Assembly (NCBI GenBank): GCA_039586795.1
Contig: JBDHJS010000003.1
Span: 16,358 to 80,357 of the forward strand
DNA length: 64,000 bases
Source: Gemmatimonadota bacterium
GTDB lineage: Bacteria > Gemmatimonadota > Gemmatimonadetes > Palauibacterales > KS3-K002
Direction: 5' to 3'
Made by a program: the position numbers and the translations under genes. The notes below the pieces were generated by a model. That model was given only the letters and a program-made list of their open reading frames with translations, was not told where the DNA came from and made no database searches. The stretch's first letter is position 1, and each line of letters starts with the position of its first letter. Of this stretch, positions 1 to 39,604 are shown one piece after another.

Positions 1-650
1 AGGTTTCCCCAGCCGGGTCGATTCCAGTGATCGACTTTCGCCGCCGGCTCGAAGTAGACGCGGCCACCGGCCGTCCGTATGTCGGTTTGCCAACCGAGCT
101 CTTCATGAGCGTAGGCGAGGGGCTGTCTTTCATCGAAGCCACGGGTCTTCTCGAAGGCGGAACGGCGAACGCTCAGGTTGCAGGGTGGATGGCTCCAAAC
201 GGTTCCGGGGCGACGCCATGGGTGGACGTGATACCAGCCGCAGTAGTAGTCGCAGCGGGCAGAAGCGGAGAGGCCGCCAGGAAGGGCGAGTGAGCCGCCG
301 ACGCAGACTTCGCCATTCGAATGGGCGTCGATGATCGTCGTGAGCCAATCGGGATGCGGCGTGCAGTCCGCGTCGAGGAAGACGAGGAGCTCGCCGGTCG
401 CGTGTTCGGCGCCCCGATTGCGCGCCGCCGCGGGATTGCCGCCATCCTTAGAGGGCTTCAGATCGACTACGGACGCGCCGGCGTTACGGGCCGCTGCAGC
501 GGTGTCGTCGTCTGAGGCATCGTCGACGACGATGACCTCGAGCTCGACATCCGGTGGCCGCTGGTCGAGGACGGCTTCGACTATGCGGCGGATGAAGTCG
601 GCGGCGTTGCGGGCCGGTATGATGACCGATACGCGATTGGGGCGGTCCAT
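1..650 (-). CDS. Glycosyltransferase family 2 (partial; 3' end lies beyond the window start)
   Basis: Not in the ORF track because there is no in-window stop. My translation of the reverse complement from the ATG at 650 gives MDRPNRVSVIIPARNAADFIRRIVEAVLDQRPPDVELEVIVVDDASDDDTAAAARNAGASVVDL...LVFLDADC with no stop down to nt 1. This is the classic GT-A/GT2 N-terminus, including the DxD-type DAD motif. Confidence 0.75.
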   Translation of the reverse strand, partial: MDRPNRVSVIIPARNAADFIRRIVEAVLDQRPPDVELEVIVVDDASDDDTAAAARNAGASVVDLKPSKDGGNPAAARNRGAEHATGELLVFLDADCTPHPDWLTTIIDAHSNGEVCVGGSLALPGGLSASARCDYYCGWYHVHPWRRPGTVWSHPPCNLSVRRSAFEKTRGFDERQPLAYAHEELGWQTDIRTAGGRVYFEPAAKVDHWNRPGWGN

Positions 651-1132
651 GAATCCTTTGTTGGCGCGGGAGAGACTACGGCGGGTCGCTATAAGTATAC
701 AGCGGTGAGGCTGATATTCGTAGGTTTTGGAAACGGGGTGTGGTCGGGCGCGATTGGGGTCCTCGCTTCATATCGCGCTGGACGGGCAACCATCTTTCAC
801 GGGCTGTGGCGCTCCAAAGTCCGCTCGTGACCCCAATCGCGCCCTCCCGAAACCCCAGCGTGTCCGACAGAGGACCCAATCGTGCCCTCCCCAAACGGGG
901 TCTCGTACCGCCAGAGGGAACTATCTTGTTGCCAGGGTCCTCCTAGAGTCTGGACCCGGCCGCTGTTGTGACCCGCAACAGTTGAAGAACGTTAGGGTCG
1001 AGCGTGACGGGAACCCCAGAGCGGACTTTGGAGCGCCGCGGCCCGTCCGCGATGGATGCCCGGTGCCGCGCGATATGAAGCGCGGGGTTCCCGTCACGCT
1101 CGACCGCAGATGATCCAGCCAGACAACTCGCT

Positions 1133-2860
1133 CTATGACTCAAGCAGCGGCACGATCCGGAACTCGTTCACATCGACCAGACCGAGATCGGTGATCTTGA
1201 GCTGGGGGATCACGGCGAGAGCGAGGAACGACATGGTCATGAGCGGGTCGGGCAGCGTTCCGCCCAGCTGCTTCGACGCGGCGCCCATCGCTTCGACGCG
1301 ATCGCGCACGTCTTCCAACGGCAGGTCGGACATCAGCCCGGCGATGGGGAGCGGGACCGAGGCGAGGACTGCGCCGTCGGCGACGACCGCCTGGCCGCCA
1401 TCGGTTTCGGCAACGGCGCGGGCCGCGGCCAGCATATCATCATCGGTGGCGCCGACGACGACGATGTTGTGGTTGTCGTGCGCTACGGTGGAGGCGATGG
1501 CGCCGCGCTTCAGGCCGAAGCCGCGGACGAAGCCGACGCCGACGTTACCGGTTCCGCGGTGTCGTTCGATCACCGCGATCTTCAGAAGGTCGCGCTCGGG
1601 ATCGGTGACCGCGTTTCCGCCTTCGATCGTGAGTTCTTCGACGCTCTGATCGGTCACGATCTGGCCGGGGATCGCGTGAATGATTCTTGCTCTCGAATCG
1701 CCGTCCGCGGCGACCGCAAGTTCTGTCTTCGCCCAGTCGACCTGGACGCCGCTACCGGGCGGGGATGGCGGCGTCGGGCGGGCGCCTTTGTACTCGCCGT
1801 CTTCGGCGACGAGGGCGCCCTCGCTGAAGACCATGCGGGCGCGGAAGTCATCGAAGCCATCGAACACGACGAGGTCGGCGCGGTAGCCAGGCGCCACGGC
1901 GCCCAGGCCGGGCAAACCGAAGTAGCGGGCGGTGTTGATCGTCGCCATCTGGATGGCGGTCATGGGGTCGAGGTCTCTGTCGCGGGCCATTCGGATCAGT
2001 GCGTCGATGTGGCCCTCGTCGAGGAGGTCCTCGGGATGGCGATCGTCGGTGCAGAACGAGCAGCTGGCCGCGTTCTCCGGGGTCACCAGAGGCAGCAACG
2101 CATCGAGATTACGCGCCGTCGTCCCTTCGCGAATGAAGAGGTGCATGCCACGGCGGAGCTTCTCCCGTGCTTCATCGATCCCGGTACACTCGTGGTCGGA
2201 GCCGATGCCGGCGGCGACGTACGCATTGAGCAGCGCGCCGGACAGGCCGGGGGAGTGGCCGTCAACTGGTCGATCGCCGGCGGCCTCGATCTTGGCGAGC
2301 ACCTCGGGCACGCCGAGGAAGACGCCGGGGAAGTTCATGACCTCGGCCAGACCGATGACCCGGGGGTGCTCGAACAAGGGCTCGAGGTCCGATGCCGCTA
2401 GGCTGGCTCCGGAAGTTTCCATGTGAGTCGCCGGCACGCAGGACGAAGCCATGGCAAAGACACGGAGCGGCAGACCCTCGCTCGATTCGAGCATGTAGAG
2501 GATGCCGGGCACGCCGAGCACGTTGGCGATCTCGTGGGGATCGGTGACCACCGTGGTGGTGCCGCGGGGGATGATGGCGCGAGCGAACTCGGGCACGGTC
2601 ACCATACTCGACTCGATGTGGACGTGGGCATCGATCAGCCCGGGACATACGTGGGCGCCGCCGAGATCGATGGTCTCCGTCGCCTCATACTTGCCAAACC
2701 CGGCCACGCGGCCGCCGAAGACGGCGATGTCGGCATCGTGCACTTCGCCGGAGAAGACGTTGACGAGTCGCGCGTTCTCGAGCAGCAGGTCGGCCGGCGC
2801 ATCGCCGCGGGCGACCTCGATCAGCTTGCTTCTGGATTCGGAAGGGATCGATTCTCTCAT
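1133..2860 (-). CDS. ade: Adenine deaminase
   Basis: 575 aa. Metal-dependent amidohydrolase motifs (GLIDAHVHIESS, HxH) and the overall length and pattern are typical of adenine deaminase. Confidence 0.8.
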   Translation of the reverse strand: MRESIPSESRSKLIEVARGDAPADLLLENARLVNVFSGEVHDADIAVFGGRVAGFGKYEATETIDLGGAHVCPGLIDAHVHIESSMVTVPEFARAIIPRGTTTVVTDPHEIANVLGVPGILYMLESSEGLPLRVFAMASSCVPATHMETSGASLAASDLEPLFEHPRVIGLAEVMNFPGVFLGVPEVLAKIEAAGDRPVDGHSPGLSGALLNAYVAAGIGSDHECTGIDEAREKLRRGMHLFIREGTTARNLDALLPLVTPENAASCSFCTDDRHPEDLLDEGHIDALIRMARDRDLDPMTAIQMATINTARYFGLPGLGAVAPGYRADLVVFDGFDDFRARMVFSEGALVAEDGEYKGARPTPPSPPGSGVQVDWAKTELAVAADGDSRARIIHAIPGQIVTDQSVEELTIEGGNAVTDPERDLLKIAVIERHRGTGNVGVGFVRGFGLKRGAIASTVAHDNHNIVVVGATDDDMLAAARAVAETDGGQAVVADGAVLASVPLPIAGLMSDLPLEDVRDRVEAMGAASKQLGGTLPDPLMTMSFLALAVIPQLKITDLGLVDVNEFRIVPLLES

Positions 2861-28242: not shown

Positions 28243-31200
28243 GTGCCTCTGACGAACACGAGTCAAGAAGACATGAGCGCGAAACTGTGGGATGTGATCA
28301 TCGTTGGCGGCGGCCCAGCCGGAATCACCGCCGCGCTCAGGCTAGCCCGAGAGGACCTGGATATCCTGGTCGTCGAAGCCGCGGTCTACCCCGGAGCCGA
28401 GAACTGGTCTGGAGCGGTGTATTTCGCCGAAAACCTGGCCGACCCTAAGGTCCTCGGAGTGGATGGGCTGGAAGCGGCCCCGTACGAAGGGCGCGTGGTC
28501 AAGCGCGGGTTTTTCTCGTGCAACGGTCTGTCGATGGCCGGGCTGGAGTATGAAAACCCGGAGACATTCAAGCACTGCTATACCGTGCTGCGGCCGGTCT
28601 ACGATCGCTACCTGGCCGAGGTGGCACGTCGGGAAGGCGTCACGTTTTTGACCGAGACGACCGTCGACGGCCTGATCCGACGGAACGACCGCGTTGTTGG
28701 CGTGCATACGGATCGCGGTCCGGTCTACGGCCAGATCGTCTTTTTGGCTGAGGGAGATGCGTCACACCTGGTGAGCAAGGAAGGCTTCGAGGGTGACGCG
28801 GTCCGCGCGAAGAAGAACGGCCAACCGGCGTTCTTGCAGGGTGTGAAGGAAGTCATCCAGCTAGAGCCGGAAGTCATCGAGGATCGGTTCGGAGTAGGGC
28901 CCGGCGAAGCGTGCTGCTACGAGATCTTGCTGAGGAACGGTGTCGTCGACGGAAAGCCAGTCCGCCTGAACATGGCGGGTCTCCTGTACACGAATCGAAA
29001 CAGCGTGTCGATCGGGCTCGTGATGCCTCTGGACAACCTCGCCGAGTATCGCGGGGACTACAACGCATTGATGGAGTGGTATAAGAGCCTTCCACCGATC
29101 GCGCGCCTCATCGAAGGCGGCGAGGCCACCTCGTTCGGGGCGAAGATCATCCGCAGTGGCGGCCTGGCCGAGATGCCGCGGCTGGTCGCCGATGGCGTCG
29201 TGGTGGGCGGAGCGGCAACGGGGATCGGCGTTGACTTTCCGTATCCGAACTTCACGGGCCCGGCCACGGCGATGGGCCGGATCTTCGCCGATGCCGTATT
29301 GAAGCTCCAGTCAGAGGGTGCGGAGCCACGGAGCGGGCAGTTGGAAGAACTGTACGTCCAGCCCTTGAAGGAAACGAGCTACTACAAGGATGTCGACTAC
29401 CTCCGCGATTGGCCCGGCTTCATCGAGCACACCGATGCGCTATTCAGCCGCCAGATCGACCTGCTGAACGGTTCGTCCTACGCAATGACTCGACCGACCC
29501 TCCGCTTTCCACACAGCTGGTGGGAGACGGTGCGGGTGGTGAGCGAGACGATGAAGGGCCGCTGGTCGAAGACACTGAAGGACCTTGCGGGTGGGTCGAA
29601 GGCGCTGCGCATGGGCCGATTGATCGCCAAGCACATGCCGGCGGCCCTGCTGCTGTCGGTCCCCAACACGCTCCTGGCGTTGATGCCGTTCGCTTATGGC
29701 AAGGGGCCAGGCAAGATCAGCCTGAGTTTCTGGGTGGACGGCGAGGAGTCGAGAACCCTCCCCTGGTACAAGCGCTGGTCGTACGCCCGGTATCGGTCGG
29801 CCCTGATGAAGGCAACAGCGATCGTCTACGCGAACGACGGTGTCCCGATCCGGACGAAGCTGGATCGCGCGATTGGCACTCTGCTGCGGCGCTTCTCGCT
29901 ATGGGAAATCGTGCTCGGCGTACTCGGGGTCGCCGTATTCTGGCTAACGCGCGGCCTACAGAAGCTTAGCGACGCGATACGCTATTCCCGTAAGAAGCCG
30001 ACGATCGAAGAACTCACGGCGACCTTCTACGGCAGCTGGCTGACGCGCTGGCGCGCGATGACCGACCTGGCGCGGGCGGCGTCGACGGGCCAGACGCATG
30101 ATGCGAAGCTCGGCGAGATCAGCTATGGCGGCGATGTGGGCTCGCACATCAAGGTGTTCTTCCCACCGGACAAGCCCGGTACGCTCGAAGATCCAAGCCG
30201 GTCGGCGCTCTGGAGCGTGTGCCCGGCGTCCGTCTACCAGATCAACGTCGATCGCACAATGCACGCGTCGGTTGCCGTGAACTTCGAGAACTGCGTGAAG
30301 TGCGAGACGTGCTGGCGAATCGAACCACAGCACGTGGACTGGTCACGGTTCGGAAAGCATCGTCTGACCTATGAAGTGTACACGGACGCCGACGCCTCGC
30401 TGCGGCAGCTTTTATCCGAACGTGAATTGCGTGACACGCCTGAGATAGAGCCGAGCTTTTGGAGCGCCACGCTCACGGAAGCGTGGCCCGTCGGTCACGT
30501 CGAGGCGTCCGACGCGCTACGGAGCGACATCACGAACGCGCGACGCGCCATCGACCGGGCTGCCGCGAAGTGCAGCGAACTGAGCGATAACATCTGGCTC
30601 GGCCCGAGGGTACTGGAGCCTGGCCAGGTCAGCTGGTACATCTCGGCTCTCGAGTACTTCGCGGTACTCGCCGATGAGGCTGCCAGCGTCGCCCTATCCG
30701 AACCGATCGAAGACTGGCTGATCGAGCACGAGTTGGCAGGCGCTCATCTGGAGCTTCTGCAAGCGAAGCGGGACCTGGATCTCGTCACGCGAGGGATCCG
30801 GGAGCATGCGGGCTCCCAGAAGTTCTTCGCCGGCGAGGCCGACGCACGACAGGCCGCCGGTCATCATCTAGCGGGCATGCGAGAGATCATCGATCGCATC
30901 GCGCTGGCCTGCCGCATCCCCGACGACTACGTCGATCCCGTGGCGGAGCTACGGAATCAGGAGCAGGAATCACCGGCGCGCGCCGCGGCCCGTGAGGAAC
31001 TGCGGGAGCATCTCGCGGCCATCTTCGATCGCGGCGCGATCCGGCGGTTGGAAGATGGTGGGTCACCGGAAGGAGCAGAGATCGAGGCTCTGCGCGAGTC
31101 GACGCGGGCGGCTTTGGGGGATGAAACGCAGGGCGCATTCGACAGCTGGGCACCGCTCACGAGGAGCGACATCCTCGGCGAGCTATCCCGCATCGACCCA

Positions 31201-34200
31201 TCGCTCGCCATCCTCGTGGCCGGTCACCTTGAGGGACTCGCGGCTCTCGAGGGTGCAGGAGCTACGGCGAAGGTTATCGGACCGCTCAAGAAGGTCGAGG
31301 TGTTCGTCACCCTGGCCACGGAAGTGGCCGGGCAACCCGGCGACGGCAAATGGAACGGAGCCTTGCCGTTCGCGCTGACGGCGTTGGCGGATCGGTTCGT
31401 TTCCCGAGGCGAAGGGCAGGTCGCCGTATTCGGGCTGAAAAGCAAAGGTGTAAAGGCCAGCATCACGCCGGCGATTGGGCTCACCGGCGCGGCGGCATCG
31501 GAGATCTTGCTCAAAGACGCCAAGCCGATGTGGTCGGGCGACTGGACGGAGGCTGACGAGACTGAACTGTTCGCAGCGCGCGTTCGCGATGCTGCGGCCA
31601 TAGCTCTCGGCTCGGCGACGATACTCACCGAACGGGCAATCGATCACGCGCGCAGTCGCATTCAATTCCCGGACATGTTCCAGGATCTGGATGGCCGCGA
31701 CGGCGTTGGCAAGTTCGGCGCCGTGCGTGCGCACCTGAGCCACATCGAGGCTTCACGGCTGGCCATCGAAACGATACTCAACGACTGCGATTGGACCGCG
31801 GACTCGGATCTCGAGGCGATGGTTGGAAAGGTCGCGGTCACGGATCTCTTCGGCCCCGACATGCCGAGCATCACCTATCGGGCGGGTCAGGTGATCGGCG
31901 GCTCCGCGTTCTCGGAGGAGGACATCTTCTCGAAGGCCTACCGCGACAGCTCGGTGTTCACTCACTACATCCGAGAGAACGCGGAGCTGAACGTGGAGAT
32001 CGGTTCGAGGATATCCGCGGGCGACGGTTCGCTGCTGGCGACGATCGCGCCTGACCTATCGGCGGCGCTGGACGTCGTGGCACGACGACCGATCTTCGAC
32101 TTCGAGGTGAATCGCCTACGCGAGGCGGAGATGCAGTTGGCGGAGAACATGCGCGGCGTGCTCTCTCAAGGACAGGAACCAGCCGTCGCCGAGGTCGTGC
32201 ACGACATCGCCGGCGAGCTGGTGACGCGACTGTATGTGTGGGCGCGCCTCATGGTGCGGGCCTACCGACGCCTGGAGGGCGCGCTCCCCGCCCAGCGTTA
32301 CCTAGAGGCCGTCCAGCTATGGGCGGACATCATAGAAGAGCGTCTGCTGGGCCTCGAGGATGAGCTCGCGCAATCCGCCGCTCGAATCGAACTGGGCACC
32401 GACGCGCTTCAGTTGGACGCCTACCCCGACGAGCCGATCGCGACCAGCGGACTCGACTTCGACCTGGACAAAGACGTCATCAAAGGTGAGGTGAACTACC
32501 GCTCCGGCGATTTCCTCTTGAAGCCGTTCCGCATCGATGAGACCCGATACACGCCCGAGCTACAGTGGGTAGACGATGTCACCAGAAACCACTACGACGA
32601 GTATCTGAAGGAGATCCGGGAGCGCTTCCAGACCGGCAGGTACAAGCCTTCCTTCGAACGGGAAACGGAGCGGCTTCACTGTATTCCTCGTGAGGATATC
32701 GACTGGACAGTGGACCGTGGCTACTTCCGCGTGGTGATCCCGGAGGAGTACGGCGGACAGGGTCGATCCAAAGCCGACTACTACAACCTGTGTCAGATCG
32801 CGAAGCGGCACGGCGACGTAAGTCTTACGCTCACAATCCAAGCCAACACTAGTATCGGGACCACACCAATGCTGCTGGGTCTGGATGAAGTGATAGCTGC
32901 CGAACGCGATCTCGCGGGCGCGGTCGCGAGGGCAGCCGATGTCGAGGCCGCGAAGTCAGAGATCGAAAAGCTGATCGAGATGATGTCGATGCCAGATGTC
33001 GATGCGCTGGCGAAGAAGTACATGGAGATTGACAAGAGCGTCCGCAGCTCGATCGGCAAGAGCAGGATTCTGAAAAAGGTGGTATTCGGAAAGTTCCAGT
33101 CGGCCTGGGGCAAAGCTGGGGCGGCCGGAATGAAGAAGGATCTTGTCGGTTTTCGGAAGGGCCTCGAGAAGGCGGTGGTCGCGCTGGGTGGTTGGCAGGA
33201 GCGAGTCGCAGCCGAACTCGATGAGATGCCGCGGCGTCGTATGGCCCACGAATTCTTCCTGCGGCTGATCTCGTCCCGGATCACGTCGGCCTTCTCCCTC
33301 ACCGAGCCGAGCGCCGGATCAGATACGGCTCGGGTCCGTACGGAGGCGCGCCTCGACTCGCGGAGCGTGCTGACGGATGACGACGGCGTGAAACACTTCT
33401 ATCTGGACGAGGATGATCCGGAAAGCCGTCGCAACCTGGCGGACATGCGACGATTCGAGTTTGACGGGCGCCGGATACTGTATCGGTACAGCGACGACGC
33501 CGATCCTGCTGAAGTCCACTCTCAGGAATACACGTACTCGGAGGACGAGGAGAAGTATCGCTACTTCATGATCGGCGACCGACGGGTCGACATCCACGAC
33601 ATGGCGATCGTGCGTGAGCGTGATGGTGAAGAGGTCTACGAGTTCTTCGTGCTGAACGGCGCCAAGATGTGGATCACCAACGGCCACATCGCCGGCGTCA
33701 ACGCCATCTACGCCCGGACTCCAATGGGGCTCACCGGGTTCATGGTCGATGCGCTGACGGATGGGTTCCTAGTCGGCAAGGACGAGGAGAAGACGGGACA
33801 GCGTGGTTCACCGACGAACGAGATCGGACTCACCAACGTACGCATCCCGCGCGAGTGCATGATCGGCATCGAGGGCCGGGGTCAGGAAAACGCGCTGGAG
33901 ACGCTCAACGTCGGTCGGACGGGGCTGTGTATCTCATCGACGGCCGGCATCGACCAGGCGATCGGCGACGCGACGGCCTACCTGGAAGAGACCGGGCGGA
34001 ATTCGTCAGCCGGAGTGCGCTACCGGTTGGGTCTGACGATGGAGGAGATGTATGCCGTCGAATCGATCGCCTACAACCTGGTCGGGATCTACGACGACAA
34101 GACCAGCGACATGCCGCGCGTGGAGTCATCGATTGCCAAGCTCTTCGGGACGGAAGGACTCCACCGAATGCTCCACTTCCTGGAGCCGGTGTATGGCATC

Positions 34201-36726
34201 GATGGTCAGACACAGCGTTACCGCATCGAGAAGGACCGACGCGACGCTAGGGTGATGACGATCTACGAGGGCACGAACGAGATCCAACAGTTCCTGTTGC
34301 TGAAGGATGTGATCGACATGGTCGGGCCGAGGCTGGACAAACTCGAGGAACTGGACGTCTCGGCTGAAGACTCGGTGTTCAAAGCCGAGGTCGATGCCCT
34401 GCGCGAGATGCACGCTGCGGTCAGGGAACGGGTGAAAGAAACACGTGCGACCTATAAGAGCGCCGCCTGGCAGCGCGCGTTGCTGCAGCCTGTGTTCTTC
34501 CGTCTGGCGCGAATGGTCGCGCTGCTGAAGACAGTGGACAGCGTTCTGCACCGCGCCGACTGGGTGGCGCGCAACCTCACGGCGGACGCGGACGCGTTCC
34601 GTCGGAGTTGGAGCGACAAGGCAGCGCGCGGCTTTGTCGCGAGAGCGCGCCGCGAGTTCATGCGGTTGGCGACGGGCTTTGATCGCGATTTCGAGACCTT
34701 GAAGGCGGGCGGCCGCACCGCCGAGTTGAAGCTGGCGGAGACGCTACTCGACGAAACGGAGATCGCCGCCGCGCACGGAAAGGCGGGCACCGGCGGGATC
34801 GAGAGGTCGCCGATCGATCGAGGTTTGGAGATCGTTGTAGCGCTGGAACGAGCGCCGCATTTGGCGCCGCGACCGCGCGTCATTGACGGCGAGCTGGCCG
34901 AGCACGTGTACGGATTCACGGCGGGAGACCGTCGTGCTCTGTCGATGGCTCTGGCTTTGAAATCGGCGTCGCCGGAGCGGGTCCGTGTGACGCTAGTATG
35001 TGCCGCGCCCGTGGAAGTGGAGGACGCGCTGCGCGCCGGGCTGGCCGCAGGCGCGGACCGGGCAATTCTGATCGACACGCGCGGGGAGTTGTACGAGGAG
35101 CATTCGGTTGCCGACGCGATCACCGGTGTTCTGCGACAACGCAACATCGATCCCGACCTGCTTCTTTCTGGCGCGTCGGAGGACGGCCCCAGCGGGGGCC
35201 GGCTCGGCCTCAGACTCGCGAGCGAATTGGACATCGAATGGGCCCCGAACGTGACCGAGCTGTGGGTGGACGGGAGCACGGCGGTAGTGACCAGCGAACG
35301 GTTTCCCGACAGCCTCATAAAGGCGGACCTGCCTGTTGCCGCATCGGTCGCGGGATCGGAAGGCGAGCCCGCTCCGGAGTTCACGGCCGCCGGTTTTGCG
35401 GAGGCGCTACGCAAAGACGTGGATGCCGTCCCGTTCCCAGACGACGCGGAACGCGCCGACGAGGAGCTAGCAACGACATCAGCACAGGCGACAACTGAGT
35501 CGCATGACGATGCCGGTCGCATCGATCCAGAGCGCGCCGCCGAGCTACTGGTTGAAGTCGGCGACCTGGGAGACGGCTCCGCCGTGCCGACGGGCGAACC
35601 ACATGCGGGAGCCATCGAGTCGGTCAGCGTCGACTCGTTGGATTGGCGCGGGGTGGTCTTCATCGCCGAGATCGAAGACGACAACCTGGTTAGAGACGCC
35701 AGAGCGCCGCTCGAGGCAGCGAGCGGCCTGGCAGAACGATCCTCTCTTCCACTATCGGGTTTGGTATTGAGCGAGCGTCTGTCCGATGACCGCCGTCGAG
35801 CGATCGCCGGACGCCTCGCCGCGCACGCGCCGTTCGGGCAGATCGTTTTCGCAGAGCACGATGCTCTGGGCGACGGCGCCTACCGCGCCTACGTCGAAGC
35901 ATTGGAGAAGCTGGTGGGGCCGGAATCCAGAACGCGCCCGACCTATCTAGTATCATCGCCGTGGCTGGCCGACGCGATGCCACCGCTGGCGGAGGTGCTT
36001 CGTCGATCCGACGTCGACGCGGACGAACTGGCCGGTGTTTCGCGGGTGGAGTTCCGCGACGGCGATGGTGTCGCGTTCGTCCAACCCGCGTACGAGCGTA
36101 AGTTGAGAGCACGACGTCACCTTCCTTACGCCGCTGACGCGATGCGGATCCTATGGTTCGAACCCGAAGTTACGTCGGAGCCAGGGGAAGCGACCTCATC
36201 GGATCCGACGGTAGTAGTGGTCGGCCTCGATCTGGACTACGATCCGCAAACAGATGCCCTGACCGAAGCGCTGCTCGAGGCAAAGAAGGCCCTTGGTGTG
36301 GTGACGTTGGAGAACGCCGAGTTCGTCATCGACGTGGGTGCCGGCCTGGGCTCCGTCGACAATCTGGACACGGTTGTGGAGCCATTGCGCCAAGCGCTGC
36401 TCGAGCTCGGGGCGCCGCACGTACTCATCGGCGCAACCCGCAAGGTGACGATAGATATGAGCTGGCTGCCGGAAGAGCTTCAGGTCGGGCAGACCGGCGT
36501 TCGAGTGAATCCGCGTATCATGATCGCGCTGGGCGTTTCAGGCGCGCCTCAGCACATCGACTGGGTGGGCGATCGCGCGGTGATCTTCGCGTTCAACATG
36601 GATGCGCAGGCGCCGCTGATGACGCTCAACCAGAGACGTGAACAGCCGAAGGTCTACCCGATCGTCGGCAACCTGCTCGAGACCGTCCCCCGCTTCATCA
36701 AGGCTCTGAAGCACGGACGCGATTGA
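28243..36726 (+). CDS. Giant multidomain flavoprotein: ETF-quinone oxidoreductase/FixC-like + FixX-like 4Fe-4S + divergent ACAD-like + acyl-CoA dehydrogenase + EtfB-like + EtfA-like (2,827 aa)
   Basis: Single uninterrupted ORF. Approximate aa positions: 14-400 FAD Rossmann (DVIIVGGGPAGITAAL) with ETF-QO/FixC similarity. 655-700 CP...CVKCETC 4Fe-4S. 900-1330 ACAD-like (ERAIDHARSRIQFP, YRDSSVFTHYIRENAE). 1480-2030 ACAD (FSLTEPSAGSD, MWITNG, IYEGTNEIQQ). 2160-2370 EtfB-like. 2450-2827 EtfA N- and C-domains (IALGVSGAPQHIDWVGDRAVIFAFNMDAQAPL, matching GISGAIQH...AINKD..API). Confidence 0.85.
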   Translation: MPLTNTSQEDMSAKLWDVIIVGGGPAGITAALRLAREDLDILVVEAAVYPGAENWSGAVYFAENLADPKVLGVDGLEAAPYEGRVVKRGFFSCNGLSMAGLEYENPETFKHCYTVLRPVYDRYLAEVARREGVTFLTETTVDGLIRRNDRVVGVHTDRGPVYGQIVFLAEGDASHLVSKEGFEGDAVRAKKNGQPAFLQGVKEVIQLEPEVIEDRFGVGPGEACCYEILLRNGVVDGKPVRLNMAGLLYTNRNSVSIGLVMPLDNLAEYRGDYNALMEWYKSLPPIARLIEGGEATSFGAKIIRSGGLAEMPRLVADGVVVGGAATGIGVDFPYPNFTGPATAMGRIFADAVLKLQSEGAEPRSGQLEELYVQPLKETSYYKDVDYLRDWPGFIEHTDALFSRQIDLLNGSSYAMTRPTLRFPHSWWETVRVVSETMKGRWSKTLKDLAGGSKALRMGRLIAKHMPAALLLSVPNTLLALMPFAYGKGPGKISLSFWVDGEESRTLPWYKRWSYARYRSALMKATAIVYANDGVPIRTKLDRAIGTLLRRFSLWEIVLGVLGVAVFWLTRGLQKLSDAIRYSRKKPTIEELTATFYGSWLTRWRAMTDLARAASTGQTHDAKLGEISYGGDVGSHIKVFFPPDKPGTLEDPSRSALWSVCPASVYQINVDRTMHASVAVNFENCVKCETCWRIEPQHVDWSRFGKHRLTYEVYTDADASLRQLLSERELRDTPEIEPSFWSATLTEAWPVGHVEASDALRSDITNARRAIDRAAAKCSELSDNIWLGPRVLEPGQVSWYISALEYFAVLADEAASVALSEPIEDWLIEHELAGAHLELLQAKRDLDLVTRGIREHAGSQKFFAGEADARQAAGHHLAGMREIIDRIALACRIPDDYVDPVAELRNQEQESPARAAAREELREHLAAIFDRGAIRRLEDGGSPEGAEIEALRESTRAALGDETQGAFDSWAPLTRSDILGELSRIDPSLAILVAGHLEGLAALEGAGATAKVIGPLKKVEVFVTLATEVAGQPGDGKWNGALPFALTALADRFVSRGEGQVAVFGLKSKGVKASITPAIGLTGAAASEILLKDAKPMWSGDWTEADETELFAARVRDAAAIALGSATILTERAIDHARSRIQFPDMFQDLDGRDGVGKFGAVRAHLSHIEASRLAIETILNDCDWTADSDLEAMVGKVAVTDLFGPDMPSITYRAGQVIGGSAFSEEDIFSKAYRDSSVFTHYIRENAELNVEIGSRISAGDGSLLATIAPDLSAALDVVARRPIFDFEVNRLREAEMQLAENMRGVLSQGQEPAVAEVVHDIAGELVTRLYVWARLMVRAYRRLEGALPAQRYLEAVQLWADIIEERLLGLEDELAQSAARIELGTDALQLDAYPDEPIATSGLDFDLDKDVIKGEVNYRSGDFLLKPFRIDETRYTPELQWVDDVTRNHYDEYLKEIRERFQTGRYKPSFERETERLHCIPREDIDWTVDRGYFRVVIPEEYGGQGRSKADYYNLCQIAKRHGDVSLTLTIQANTSIGTTPMLLGLDEVIAAERDLAGAVARAADVEAAKSEIEKLIEMMSMPDVDALAKKYMEIDKSVRSSIGKSRILKKVVFGKFQSAWGKAGAAGMKKDLVGFRKGLEKAVVALGGWQERVAAELDEMPRRRMAHEFFLRLISSRITSAFSLTEPSAGSDTARVRTEARLDSRSVLTDDDGVKHFYLDEDDPESRRNLADMRRFEFDGRRILYRYSDDADPAEVHSQEYTYSEDEEKYRYFMIGDRRVDIHDMAIVRERDGEEVYEFFVLNGAKMWITNGHIAGVNAIYARTPMGLTGFMVDALTDGFLVGKDEEKTGQRGSPTNEIGLTNVRIPRECMIGIEGRGQENALETLNVGRTGLCISSTAGIDQAIGDATAYLEETGRNSSAGVRYRLGLTMEEMYAVESIAYNLVGIYDDKTSDMPRVESSIAKLFGTEGLHRMLHFLEPVYGIDGQTQRYRIEKDRRDARVMTIYEGTNEIQQFLLLKDVIDMVGPRLDKLEELDVSAEDSVFKAEVDALREMHAAVRERVKETRATYKSAAWQRALLQPVFFRLARMVALLKTVDSVLHRADWVARNLTADADAFRRSWSDKAARGFVARARREFMRLATGFDRDFETLKAGGRTAELKLAETLLDETEIAAAHGKAGTGGIERSPIDRGLEIVVALERAPHLAPRPRVIDGELAEHVYGFTAGDRRALSMALALKSASPERVRVTLVCAAPVEVEDALRAGLAAGADRAILIDTRGELYEEHSVADAITGVLRQRNIDPDLLLSGASEDGPSGGRLGLRLASELDIEWAPNVTELWVDGSTAVVTSERFPDSLIKADLPVAASVAGSEGEPAPEFTAAGFAEALRKDVDAVPFPDDAERADEELATTSAQATTESHDDAGRIDPERAAELLVEVGDLGDGSAVPTGEPHAGAIESVSVDSLDWRGVVFIAEIEDDNLVRDARAPLEAASGLAERSSLPLSGLVLSERLSDDRRRAIAGRLAAHAPFGQIVFAEHDALGDGAYRAYVEALEKLVGPESRTRPTYLVSSPWLADAMPPLAEVLRRSDVDADELAGVSRVEFRDGDGVAFVQPAYERKLRARRHLPYAADAMRILWFEPEVTSEPGEATSSDPTVVVVGLDLDYDPQTDALTEALLEAKKALGVVTLENAEFVIDVGAGLGSVDNLDTVVEPLRQALLELGAPHVLIGATRKVTIDMSWLPEELQVGQTGVRVNPRIMIALGVSGAPQHIDWVGDRAVIFAFNMDAQAPLMTLNQRREQPKVYPIVGNLLETVPRFIKALKHGRD

Positions 36727-38374: not shown

Positions 38375-39604
38375 TCAGGAGGGATCGTGAATGACGCCGA
38401 TGAAGAGGATGGTGCCGGAGAAGCGTTCACGGATCGCGAAGAGAAACGGCCTATCGACACGCACAGCCATCGGCGCGCTGGTAACACCCACCTCGACAGA
38501 GGTGACAGCGGCCGCCTCGGTGCCCTCTTCGTTGACATCGACAAAGGTCTTGTGTTTGACTTTGCTGATGAAGAGCTGAGCCTGGTCGTTGATCCTGGAG
38601 AAATCGGCGTTCAGTTCGTCGAAGGCGATCTCCATGCCGAGGGCCTTCAGCGCTTCGTTCAACTCGATCTCGTACTCGAGGGTGAACTTGGGGAGGTACA
38701 CCTCCATTTCAGCGGCCAGCAGCCCGTCGATCCAACCCTGCCATGTGGCCGCGTCAATCGAAGCGACCAGCGAATCGATGTCACGACCACGGTCCGGCAG
38801 AACGATCGTCATGCTATACGCCTTACCGCCATACGGAAGGTCGGCTACAAGAACGCCTTCATCGTAGTAGGATCGCAATTCCGCTTCGCCGCCGTGGGTC
38901 ATCATCGGCACCTGGACCGTACCGCCGTCGGCCAGGGTGAAGACGCCAGGCGCGGTCCGATCCGGATCGAATTGGGTGGTCCAGTTCCCCTTGAAGTAGA
39001 TGGCATTGATGAGGAACATGATGATCTCGGGCGCGATCGCATCGACAATCTCACTGATCCGACCGTTGGTTTTATCGTCTACCCAGCTGTTGATGATCCC
39101 CGGTGCGCCAGGGTCGTCGAAGTCGAGCGTCGCCACCTCGGCGTCGAAGTGCTCGATGTTTACATCGATGAAATCCTGTTCGACGGGAAAGTTCTCACGA
39201 ATCCAGATCGAGTTGGCCAGAGTGAACTGCACGGAAGAGTCGAGGTTAGCAAGAAGATCGATCAGGCTGCGATAGGAGTCGTTTACGTCATCGATCGATA
39301 GCCCCTGTAGCTCGAGCGTCTCTTGCATAGCCTCGAGCGTTGTGCCATCGGCGCCGTTGTATACCATGCCGAGCGCCATGGCGACGCTGAGCGGTGATAG
39401 AAAGATGTTGGCACCAACTTCCTCGCCCTGATGAACTTCGCGGAAGAGCTTGAGGCCGAAGCTGTTGTCCGACTCGATGAGCTGCTCTTCACCCGCTTCG
39501 AGGTCGCGAGGAAGCCCTTCGATCTGCGGATTCTGGATATCTTCGTCGCATCCCAGCGCGACCAGCACCCAAAGACCCGCTACGATAGCTGTGAGTCGTC
39601 TCAT
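38375..39604 (-). CDS. Serpin (serine protease inhibitor) family lipoprotein
   Basis: Lipobox LVALGC. Serpin blocks NIFLSPLSVAMALGMVYNGA and C-terminal PFLFAIRERFSGTILFIGVIHDP; the ~400-aa length fits. Confidence 0.8.
   Translation of the reverse strand: MRRLTAIVAGLWVLVALGCDEDIQNPQIEGLPRDLEAGEEQLIESDNSFGLKLFREVHQGEEVGANIFLSPLSVAMALGMVYNGADGTTLEAMQETLELQGLSIDDVNDSYRSLIDLLANLDSSVQFTLANSIWIRENFPVEQDFIDVNIEHFDAEVATLDFDDPGAPGIINSWVDDKTNGRISEIVDAIAPEIIMFLINAIYFKGNWTTQFDPDRTAPGVFTLADGGTVQVPMMTHGGEAELRSYYDEGVLVADLPYGGKAYSMTIVLPDRGRDIDSLVASIDAATWQGWIDGLLAAEMEVYLPKFTLEYEIELNEALKALGMEIAFDELNADFSRINDQAQLFISKVKHKTFVDVNEEGTEAAAVTSVEVGVTSAPMAVRVDRPFLFAIRERFSGTILFIGVIHDPS

Follow-up and report, generated by a model that had tools for sequence, protein, structure and literature searches.

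A probably non-catalytic acyl-CoA dehydrogenase domain beside a catalytic one in a giant fusion protein of Gemmatimonadota

The locus described here raises the question of what occupies the middle of a giant protein that is otherwise made up of recognisable electron transfer components. The protein is encoded on a stretch of 64,000 nucleotides (the window) from a Gemmatimonadota bacterium (assembly GCA_039586795.1, contig JBDHJS010000003.1), by an open reading frame (ORF) in which Pfam, NCBIfam and the present analysis place, in this order, a FixC-like part resembling the quinone oxidoreductase (ETF-QO) of the electron transfer flavoprotein (ETF), a FixX-like 4Fe-4S part, a degenerate acyl-CoA dehydrogenase (pseudo-ACAD), a catalytic acyl-CoA dehydrogenase (ACAD), EtfB and EtfA. 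In the ~700 residues that separate the ferredoxin-like domain from the canonical ACAD no Pfam or NCBIfam family reaches its threshold, and it is inside this unassigned stretch that a segment (nt 30940-32240, aa 900-1333, with residues counted throughout from the GTG at 28243) had been picked out by a reading of the sequence alone, hereafter the sequence-only reading, as a second and divergent ACAD. The evidence is best explained if this segment is a degenerate ACAD domain of the VLCAD/ACAD9 type which is non-catalytic, and it probably serves as partner to the catalytic domain that follows it.

Searched against Pfam as a single sequence, the segment is matched by Acyl-CoA_dh_1 only, and that below threshold (19.5 bits, the cutoff being 22.4, E=0.0012), with no match of Acyl-CoA_dh_N or Acyl-CoA_dh_M and no gathering score reached. 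A single-sequence phmmer search of Protein Data Bank (PDB) sequences has CarC, the ACAD of caffeyl-CoA reductase (6fah_C), as its best match at E=2.9e-4. With relatives added the affiliation becomes apparent: a profile of 4 sequences raises the CarC match to E=6.1e-6, and one of 24 sequences, covering aa 741-1440, has mouse VLCAD (8ca1_B) as its best match at E=1.6e-15, followed by human VLCAD at ~1e-11, the SCAD-type 7p98 at E=3e-11 and Megasphaera BCD at E=7e-10. The alignment of the 24-sequence profile covers residues 10-386 of 8i4p_A, that is the entire fold, and in VLCAD it runs on through the C-terminal helical domain (residues ~445-634). Two genuine ACADs, P0107 and P0112, were also recovered, at E ~4e-5 to 1e-4, when 1.84 billion representative proteins were searched with a hidden Markov model (HMM) of the family.

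The predicted structure is that of an ACAD. An AlphaFold2 model of aa 741-1440, built on an alignment of 43 sequences, has a predicted local distance difference test score (pLDDT) of 90.3 and a predicted template modelling score (pTM) of 0.90, with secondary structure in the order α(159-276), β(282-360) and α(363-~520) in the numbering of the segment. Compared with the PDB by Foldseek the model returns VLCAD (3b96) at E=4.8e-13 with a template modelling score, TM(target), of 0.67 over 588 columns, ACAD9, Pseudomonas FadE1, Mycobacterium smegmatis FadE5 and a Bacillus anthracis ACAD at E ~1e-12 to 5e-13, and tetrameric ACADs with TM(target) of 0.72-0.74. At the level of fold and profile it is thus confirmed that the segment is a real domain of the ACAD superfamily, and the proposal that aa ~900-1330 form a complete ACAD fold is borne out by the profile matches, the model and Foldseek alike; the profile alignment finds ACAD similarity where an unrelated helical linker had been the alternative. 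The two strings quoted in support of that proposal are both present in ORF 28243-36726, ERAIDHARSRIQFP...LAIETIL at aa 1130-1178 and YRDSSVFTHYIRENAE at aa 1233-1248. The range given for the domain needs amending, as 30940-32240 covers the ACAD core but ends within a C-terminal extension, and the module is larger (aa ~757-1390). Judged by profile and model this extension is a helical domain of the VLCAD/ACAD9 type; Pfam PF21343 (ACAD9-ACADV_C) gave no match on the giant protein. At the other end of the module a further helical bundle carries the conserved motifs GPRVLEPGQ and FFAAEADARQ, and its match to the N-terminus of VLCAD is weak and not significant taken alone.

Whether such a domain could still act as a dehydrogenase was addressed by a census of motifs in 43 full-length family members, in which PROSITE-style patterns were used. 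The losses in the two copies are complementary. The TEPxxGSD loop, which is the core of signature 1, and the YEG[TS] motif are present in none of the pseudo copies (0/43 in each case) and in every catalytic copy (43/43), and a W-I-T-N-like motif is found in 1/43 pseudo and 42/43 catalytic copies. R-x-Q-F, on the other hand, is present in 43/43 pseudo copies and absent from the aligned catalytic copies, 8/43 of which match a looser pattern, whilst signature 2 is found in its strict form in 7/43 pseudo copies, in 36/43 if one change of Gly to Ala is allowed, and under either form in 0/43 catalytic copies. Where R-x-Q-F would be expected from alignment with ACAD9 and with the upstream copy, the catalytic copy reads ETGRNSSAG, and at the position of Q..GG.G it reads EPVYGIDG.

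The claim that the catalytic Glu of the upstream copy has been substituted therefore stands, with YEG[TS] missing throughout and Ile1243 at that position in the window's protein, where YRDSSVFTHYI aligns with YRDCRVFTIYE of CarC and RDLRIFRIFEGT of VLCAD. The wider claim that the signature residues as a whole have been substituted is correct for the residues that would hold the domain's own flavin, but the signature 2 region (GQVIGGSAFSEEDIFSKAYRD) and R-x-Q-F are the most conserved parts of the module. Lacking the catalytic Glu, signature 1 and a Pfam score above threshold, the upstream copy is, on its sequence, not a competent ACAD.

What has been kept is as informative as what has been lost. 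Over the 700-aa segment the residues invariant in the 43 sequences are Q1141, F1142, D1148, K1157, G1159, Q1216, G1219, G1220, R1234 and D1235 (the last five being Q476, G479, G480, R494 and D495 in segment numbering), nearly all of which fall within or between the R-x-Q-F and Q..GG motifs, and R1139 is conserved in at least 90% of the sequences. Identity by domain, given as the value to Gemmatimonadota orthologues and then to distant members, is 0.75 and 0.35 for the C-terminal α-domain of the pseudo copy, against 0.76 and 0.43 for the C-domain of the catalytic copy, 0.55 and 0.24 for the N-terminal α-domain, and 0.50 and 0.20 for the β-domain, which is the least conserved part. Five short variants of 2,285-2,442 aa (P0069, P0083, P0093, P0095 and P0097, one of them from an Acidiferrobacter sp.) have had most of the pseudo β-domain deleted and still carry RVQF, GQIFGG and YRD of the pseudo C-domain.

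This pattern can be set against the way in which ACADs bind flavin adenine dinucleotide (FAD). The FAD sits at a dimer interface, with the isoalloxazine site and the catalytic Glu coming from one subunit, and the neighbouring subunit holds the cofactor's ADP part by means of an Arg (R-x-x-F-G) and a Gln/Gly pair (Q..GG). The cryo-EM structure of human SCAD is described as having S155, G160, S161, T187 and E396 in contact with the isoalloxazine, ribityl and pyrophosphate within the same monomer, and R297, Q365 and G369 binding FAD from the adjacent monomer (PMC13027082). By motif position the first set would correspond to the TEPxxGSD, WIT and YEGT..E motifs and the second to R-x-x-F-G and Q..GG, and we infer that Q1216 and G1220 are the counterparts of Q365 and G369 in SCAD, and R1139 that of R297. 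The partition of motifs is then best explained if the pseudo copy keeps the residues that reach FAD across the interface and the catalytic copy keeps those that hold its own flavin. The sequence-only reading had asked for the conservation of the catalytic Glu and of the FAD contacts to be checked, and the own-FAD residues prove to be lost and the cross-interface ones kept; a non-catalytic module that aids flavin binding, as it had suggested, is the best reading of lost catalytic motifs together with kept cross-interface motifs.

Because the motif losses of the two copies are complementary, a pseudo-heterodimer with one complete FAD site is predicted, and it is probable that the two copies do form such a pair, sharing one FAD and one active site. 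The upstream copy would be a "β-like" partner to the catalytic domain that follows in the same chain. The downstream copy would hold its own flavin by TEPSAGSD, WITNG and YEGTNEIQ with Glu2009, and the upstream copy would reach across the interface by R1139, Q1216 and G1220, the packing being simplest within one chain. Electrons from the active site so formed may pass to EtfBA and from there to FixC/FixX, the ETF-QO-like module, both of them fused to the pair. When the two copies are modelled jointly by AlphaFold2 (aa 900-2090), the pLDDT is 91.3 and the pTM 0.91. So high a pTM would hardly be reached without a confident prediction of how the modules lie relative to each other, and it points to one confidently packed assembly and not to two independent modules.

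A number of points weigh against this pairing. The pTM of the joint model is indirect evidence on the interface, and both an ACAD-dimer geometry and the facing of R1139, Q1216 and G1220 towards the FAD site are read into it; compared with the PDB by Foldseek, the two-copy model returns single-ACAD chains only. The data would be accommodated just as well by pairing across two chains, as a domain swap in a homodimer. The equivalences with SCAD and MCAD residues come from alignment at the level of motifs and not from structural superposition, and the window's own pseudo copy, with Ala at the third Gly position, fails the strict signature 2. Finally, no ChsE chain of the steroid-degrading ACADs, in which a division of labour of this kind is known, is among the best 60 PDB sequence matches or the best 50 fold matches, which are led by VLCAD, ACAD9 and FadE; since the ChsE chains are missing there, the pseudo-ACAD is not filed in the ChsE/CasC clade, and its likeness to ChsE and CasC would be functional or convergent, kinship by descent having found no support in these sequence and fold searches.

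It could instead be that the pseudo-ACAD is purely structural, serving as a scaffold or as a platform to which, for example, the fused ETF docks or by which the protein associates with the membrane, with no part in the FAD site. The fold has indeed been kept without the catalytic apparatus and extra helical bundles flank the module at both ends. The C-terminal domain of VLCAD has been linked with membrane association. Partial ACAD duplications are also known as interface mimics, in the C-terminal extension of VLCAD and the N-terminal extension of PdMCD (PMC5798300). A scaffold, however, leaves unexplained why exactly the cross-interface Arg and Gln/Gly FAD motifs should be invariant in it, and why the same motifs should be lost from the catalytic copy in 43/43 members, and we regard this explanation as unlikely. 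Invariant motifs also speak against the segment being a decaying relic of a duplication or fusion that acts as a spacer without specific role: although its N- and β-domains diverge fast and it does not reach the Pfam threshold, the module with its invariant motifs is present in every full-length member, in lineages at 20-30% identity, the prediction of its fold is very confident and the conservation of its C-domain is about equal to that of the catalytic copy, so that this is hardly credible.

The remaining explanation is that the upstream copy has stayed active, as a dehydrogenase or as some other flavoenzyme, with an FAD of its own and an unconventional base. Some ACADs do carry the catalytic base elsewhere, on helix G in IVD and LCAD, and Glu1245, two residues past the canonical position, is conserved among the Gemmatimonadota orthologues. 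Glu1245 is not kept in distant members though, and a manual register count in the alignment of distant members saw no conserved Glu at the helix-G position of the pseudo copy, the position being variable. With the TEPxxGSD loop in none and WITN in one of the 43, and a β-domain that evolves fast and is deleted in some members, an active enzyme is very improbable, and the pairing of a non-catalytic copy with a catalytic one is preferred.

How the two copies came to stand side by side is less clear-cut. Both are of the VLCAD/ACAD9/FadE type, the best PDB matches of the catalytic copy being ACAD9 and VLCAD (E=6.5e-34 for the best, others to ~1e-30) and the top NCBIfam match of its region a 586-aa Bacillus FadE model. 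The comparison with the downstream ACAD that the sequence-only reading had called for finds their mutual similarity to be colinear and weak: hhalign of the whole regions gives E=0.0085 with a probability of 4.7% and 14% identity, and an HMM of the pseudo copy, run on the catalytic copies in the same chains, gave a match due to range overlap and, beyond that, nothing significant, only a weak match between the two C-terminal extensions. Similarity this weak is to be expected if each copy has kept what the other lost. When sub-regions were compared by hhalign, four of 45 pairs passed E<0.05, and three of these are cognate and colinear: β with β (E=0.046), C with C (E=0.0062), and C-terminal extension with C-terminal extension (E=2.9e-4). 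A recent internal duplication was rejected, as the direct similarity between the copies is too weak for it, and it is plausible that a VLCAD-like unit was duplicated in tandem long ago. The internal duplication that had been proposed is hence plausible from the shared type and the shared C-terminal extension, but the weak direct similarity does not demonstrate it. The fourth pair to pass is non-colinear and joins the pre-N helices of the pseudo copy (aa ~797-863, within 30511-30909) to a helical insert of the catalytic copy (32878-33312) at E=0.013.

The number of relatives found depended on how they were sought. A word-indexed homology search returned 3, all fragmentary, and a scan of GTDB genomes returned 18 loci, all in metagenome-assembled genomes (MAGs) of Gemmatimonadota, 9 of which have uninterrupted frames of 2,600-2,930 aa, some cut by contig ends. 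The HMM search of 1.84 billion proteins gave 118 matches at E≤1e-3, mostly of 2,300-2,900 aa with the same architecture, 34 of them distant homologues with a length of 2,200 aa or more. The giant homologues come from MAGs and metagenomes only, under names such as "hypothetical protein", "electron transfer flavoprotein-quinone oxidoreductase", "AidB-like acyl-CoA dehydrogenase" and "FAD-binding protein [Acidiferrobacter sp.]", and full-text literature searches found no published description of a giant fusion of ACAD, ETF and ETF-QO. A version split into separate genes is found at L019:439-3992 (GCA_016209155.1, JACQWU010000049.1), where a FixC-like gene of 529 aa and a gene of 220 aa are followed by a pseudo-ACAD gene, P0064, which overlaps the preceding gene by 19 nt and is itself cut by the contig end. 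A further relative, P0110, is a stand-alone protein of 760 aa in an unrelated gene context.

The coordinates of the giant ORF and its parts are collected in the table. Translation probably starts at the ATG at 28273, since homologues open with MSKKLWDV. The FixC-like and FixX-like parts are separated by a region with two hydrophobic stretches, at aa 467-485 (29641-29697) and aa 551-569 (29893-29949), with Kyte-Doolittle means over 19 residues of 1.55 and 1.91 respectively, and the second resembles a transmembrane helix, which suggests that the giant protein is anchored in the membrane. The catalytic copy contains two inserts, both modelled with high confidence by AlphaFold2: one of ~145 aa, helical, between its N-domain and β-domain (aa 1546-1690, ~32878-33312), and one of ~115 aa, with many β-strands, that separates TEPSAGSD from WITNG (aa 1695-1809, ~33325-33669). 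An ORF of 186 aa on the opposite strand (31183-31743, -) overlaps the pseudo-ACAD region and is most likely a by-product of high G+C, because such ORFs are expected at ~64% G+C and the frame of the giant ORF is conserved in all homologues. The genes that flank the giant ORF are unrelated to it and encode an AsmA-like protein, a member of the uracil-DNA glycosylase (UDG) family, a polysaccharide biosynthesis protein, a serpin and a peroxiredoxin; a hint as to the substrate was sought among these neighbours and none was found, nor were there steroid-catabolic genes among them. The serpin gene, two genes downstream (38375-39604, -), encodes a full-length bacterial serpin of 409 aa (Pfam Serpin, E=4e-112).

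Coordinates of the giant ORF and of the features within it, in nucleotides of the window and in residues of the ORF
Feature	Nucleotides	Residues	Strand	Basis
Giant ORF, 2,827 codons	28243-36726	2,827 aa	+	ORF list and translation
FixC/ETF-QO-like FAD oxidoreductase		11-403	+	Pfam/NCBIfam
ETF-QO-type 4Fe-4S domain (FixX-like)		659-700	+	Pfam/NCBIfam
Extra N-terminal helical bundle, five long helices	30511-30909	757-889	+	AlphaFold2 helices H17-149, pLDDT mostly >90
Pseudo-ACAD core	~30937-32022	~899-1260	+	Profile and model
Pseudo-ACAD N-terminal α-domain	30937-31290	899-1016	+	Model helices H159-276; alignment starting at residue 68 of SCAD 7p98 and at residue 10 of 8i4p_A
Pseudo-ACAD middle β-domain, without TEPxxGSD and W-I-T-N	31306-31542	1022-1100	+	Model strands E282-360
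Pseudo-ACAD C-terminal α-domain, conserved core of the module	31549-32022	1103-1260	+	Acyl-CoA_dh_1 at 19.5 bits; CarC, VLCAD and SCAD alignments
R-x-Q-F motif	31657-31668	R1139-I-Q1141-F1142	+	Arg aligned with its counterpart in this motif of VLCAD (R-T-Q-F) and CarC
Signature-2-like motif	31888-31947	Q1216-VIGGSAFSEEDIFSKAY-R1234-D1235	+	43-sequence alignment
Position of the catalytic glutamate (YEGT)	31969-31971	Ile1243	+	CarC and VLCAD alignments
C-terminal helical extension of pseudo copy, VLCAD/ACAD9 type	32032-32412	1264-1390	+	Profile, Foldseek, hhalign
Catalytic ACAD copy	32485-34332	~1415-2030	+	Pfam N, M and C domains
Canonical ACAD N domain		1464-1544	+	Pfam
Canonical ACAD M domain		1791-1866	+	Pfam
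Canonical ACAD C domain		1878-2016	+	Pfam
TEPSAGSD	33301-33324		+	Motif of catalytic copy
WITNG	33670-33684		+	Motif of catalytic copy
YEGTNEIQ	34264-34287	with Glu2009	+	Motif of catalytic copy
C-terminal helical extension of catalytic copy	34333-34842	2031-2200	+	hhalign to pseudo extension, E=2.9e-4
EtfB-like domain		2223-2392	+	Pfam/NCBIfam
EtfA FAD domain		2689-2772	+	Pfam/NCBIfam

That a catalytic ACAD can be complemented by a dead paralogue, to which the ADP end of the FAD is bound, is in itself known, and has so far been described only for steroid-degrading enzymes. What appears to be new is an asymmetric pair of the VLCAD type, inside an undescribed fusion of 2,827 aa, and this case suggests that subfunctionalisation recurs when ACADs turn asymmetric. 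The division of labour is conserved in uncultured bacteria, over ~40 sequence clusters to which Gemmatimonadota and Acidiferrobacter-like organisms contribute. With this interpretation ~650 residues of a large uncharacterised fusion gain a concrete reading, which matters for annotation, as the pseudo-ACAD domain slips below the Pfam thresholds and is at present "hypothetical" or filed under generic names. The enclosing giant protein is a more unusual object than the ACAD pair and would be attractive for structural study of electron transfer between flavins, as it plausibly holds the whole path from ACAD to ETF to ETF-QO, that is from acyl-CoA to quinone, in a single membrane-anchored polypeptide. 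Taking this further, it may tentatively be proposed that the protein is a self-contained, membrane-anchored acyl-CoA:quinone oxidoreductase (ACAD, ETF and ETF-QO), in which the dead copy is the chain's own dimer partner and completes the interfacial FAD site, active site, ETF and quinone reductase are held at 1:1:1, and the asymmetric pair arose independently of the steroid α2β2 enzymes and CasC, when a VLCAD-like ancestor was duplicated in tandem and its copies degenerated in complementary ways; as a whole this is offered as a possibility and not as an expectation.

Amongst known systems the closest in type are VLCAD, ACAD9 and bacterial FadE, to which both copies are best matched by profile and fold, also in the extra helical domain at the C-terminus. 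These are competent homodimers with all motifs in each subunit, unlike the upstream copy, which is without the catalytic Glu and the contacts to a flavin of its own. The bifurcating complexes Bcd/EtfAB and CarCDE likewise have an ACAD that works with an ETF, and CarC is the best single-sequence match in the PDB. The sequence-only reading had drawn its analogy with the Bcd/Etf complexes, which is not apt: to our knowledge the ACAD components of Bcd/EtfAB and CarCDE are homomeric and fully catalytic, and we know of no precedent there for a dead partner.

The right precedents are ChsE4-ChsE5, ChsE1-ChsE2 and the fused CasC. The α2β2 ACADs are described as having one FAD and one active site per αβ pair (PMC11153573, PMC8399759), and in the account of ChsE4-ChsE5 the α subunit provides the isoalloxazine site and the Glu and the β subunit contacts the ADP-ribose of the FAD (PMC11153573). 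The arrangement in the α2β2 ACADs of Mycobacterium tuberculosis, ChsE4-ChsE5 (FadE26-FadE27), ChsE1-ChsE2 (FadE28-FadE29) and IpdE1-IpdE2, predicts the very partition of motifs seen here, but those enzymes are tetramers of separate polypeptides of ordinary size, whereas the partners here are fused and of the dimeric VLCAD type. Nearest in layout is CasC, the cholate side-chain dehydrogenase of Rhodococcus jostii RHA1, described as a fusion of two ACAD domains, the Glu being present in the C-terminal one alone and the N-terminal one being required if FAD is to bind (PMC8399759). The order is the same in the giant protein, a Glu-less N-terminal domain and then a Glu-bearing C-terminal one, and so is the division of labour that may be deduced from it, the likeness being drawn from the published description of CasC. 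CasC stands alone as an enzyme, encoded within a steroid gene cluster, whereas the pair in the giant protein sits between FixC/FixX and EtfBA, and its copies, unlike CasC, are VLCAD/ACAD9-like with C-terminal extensions and large inserts.

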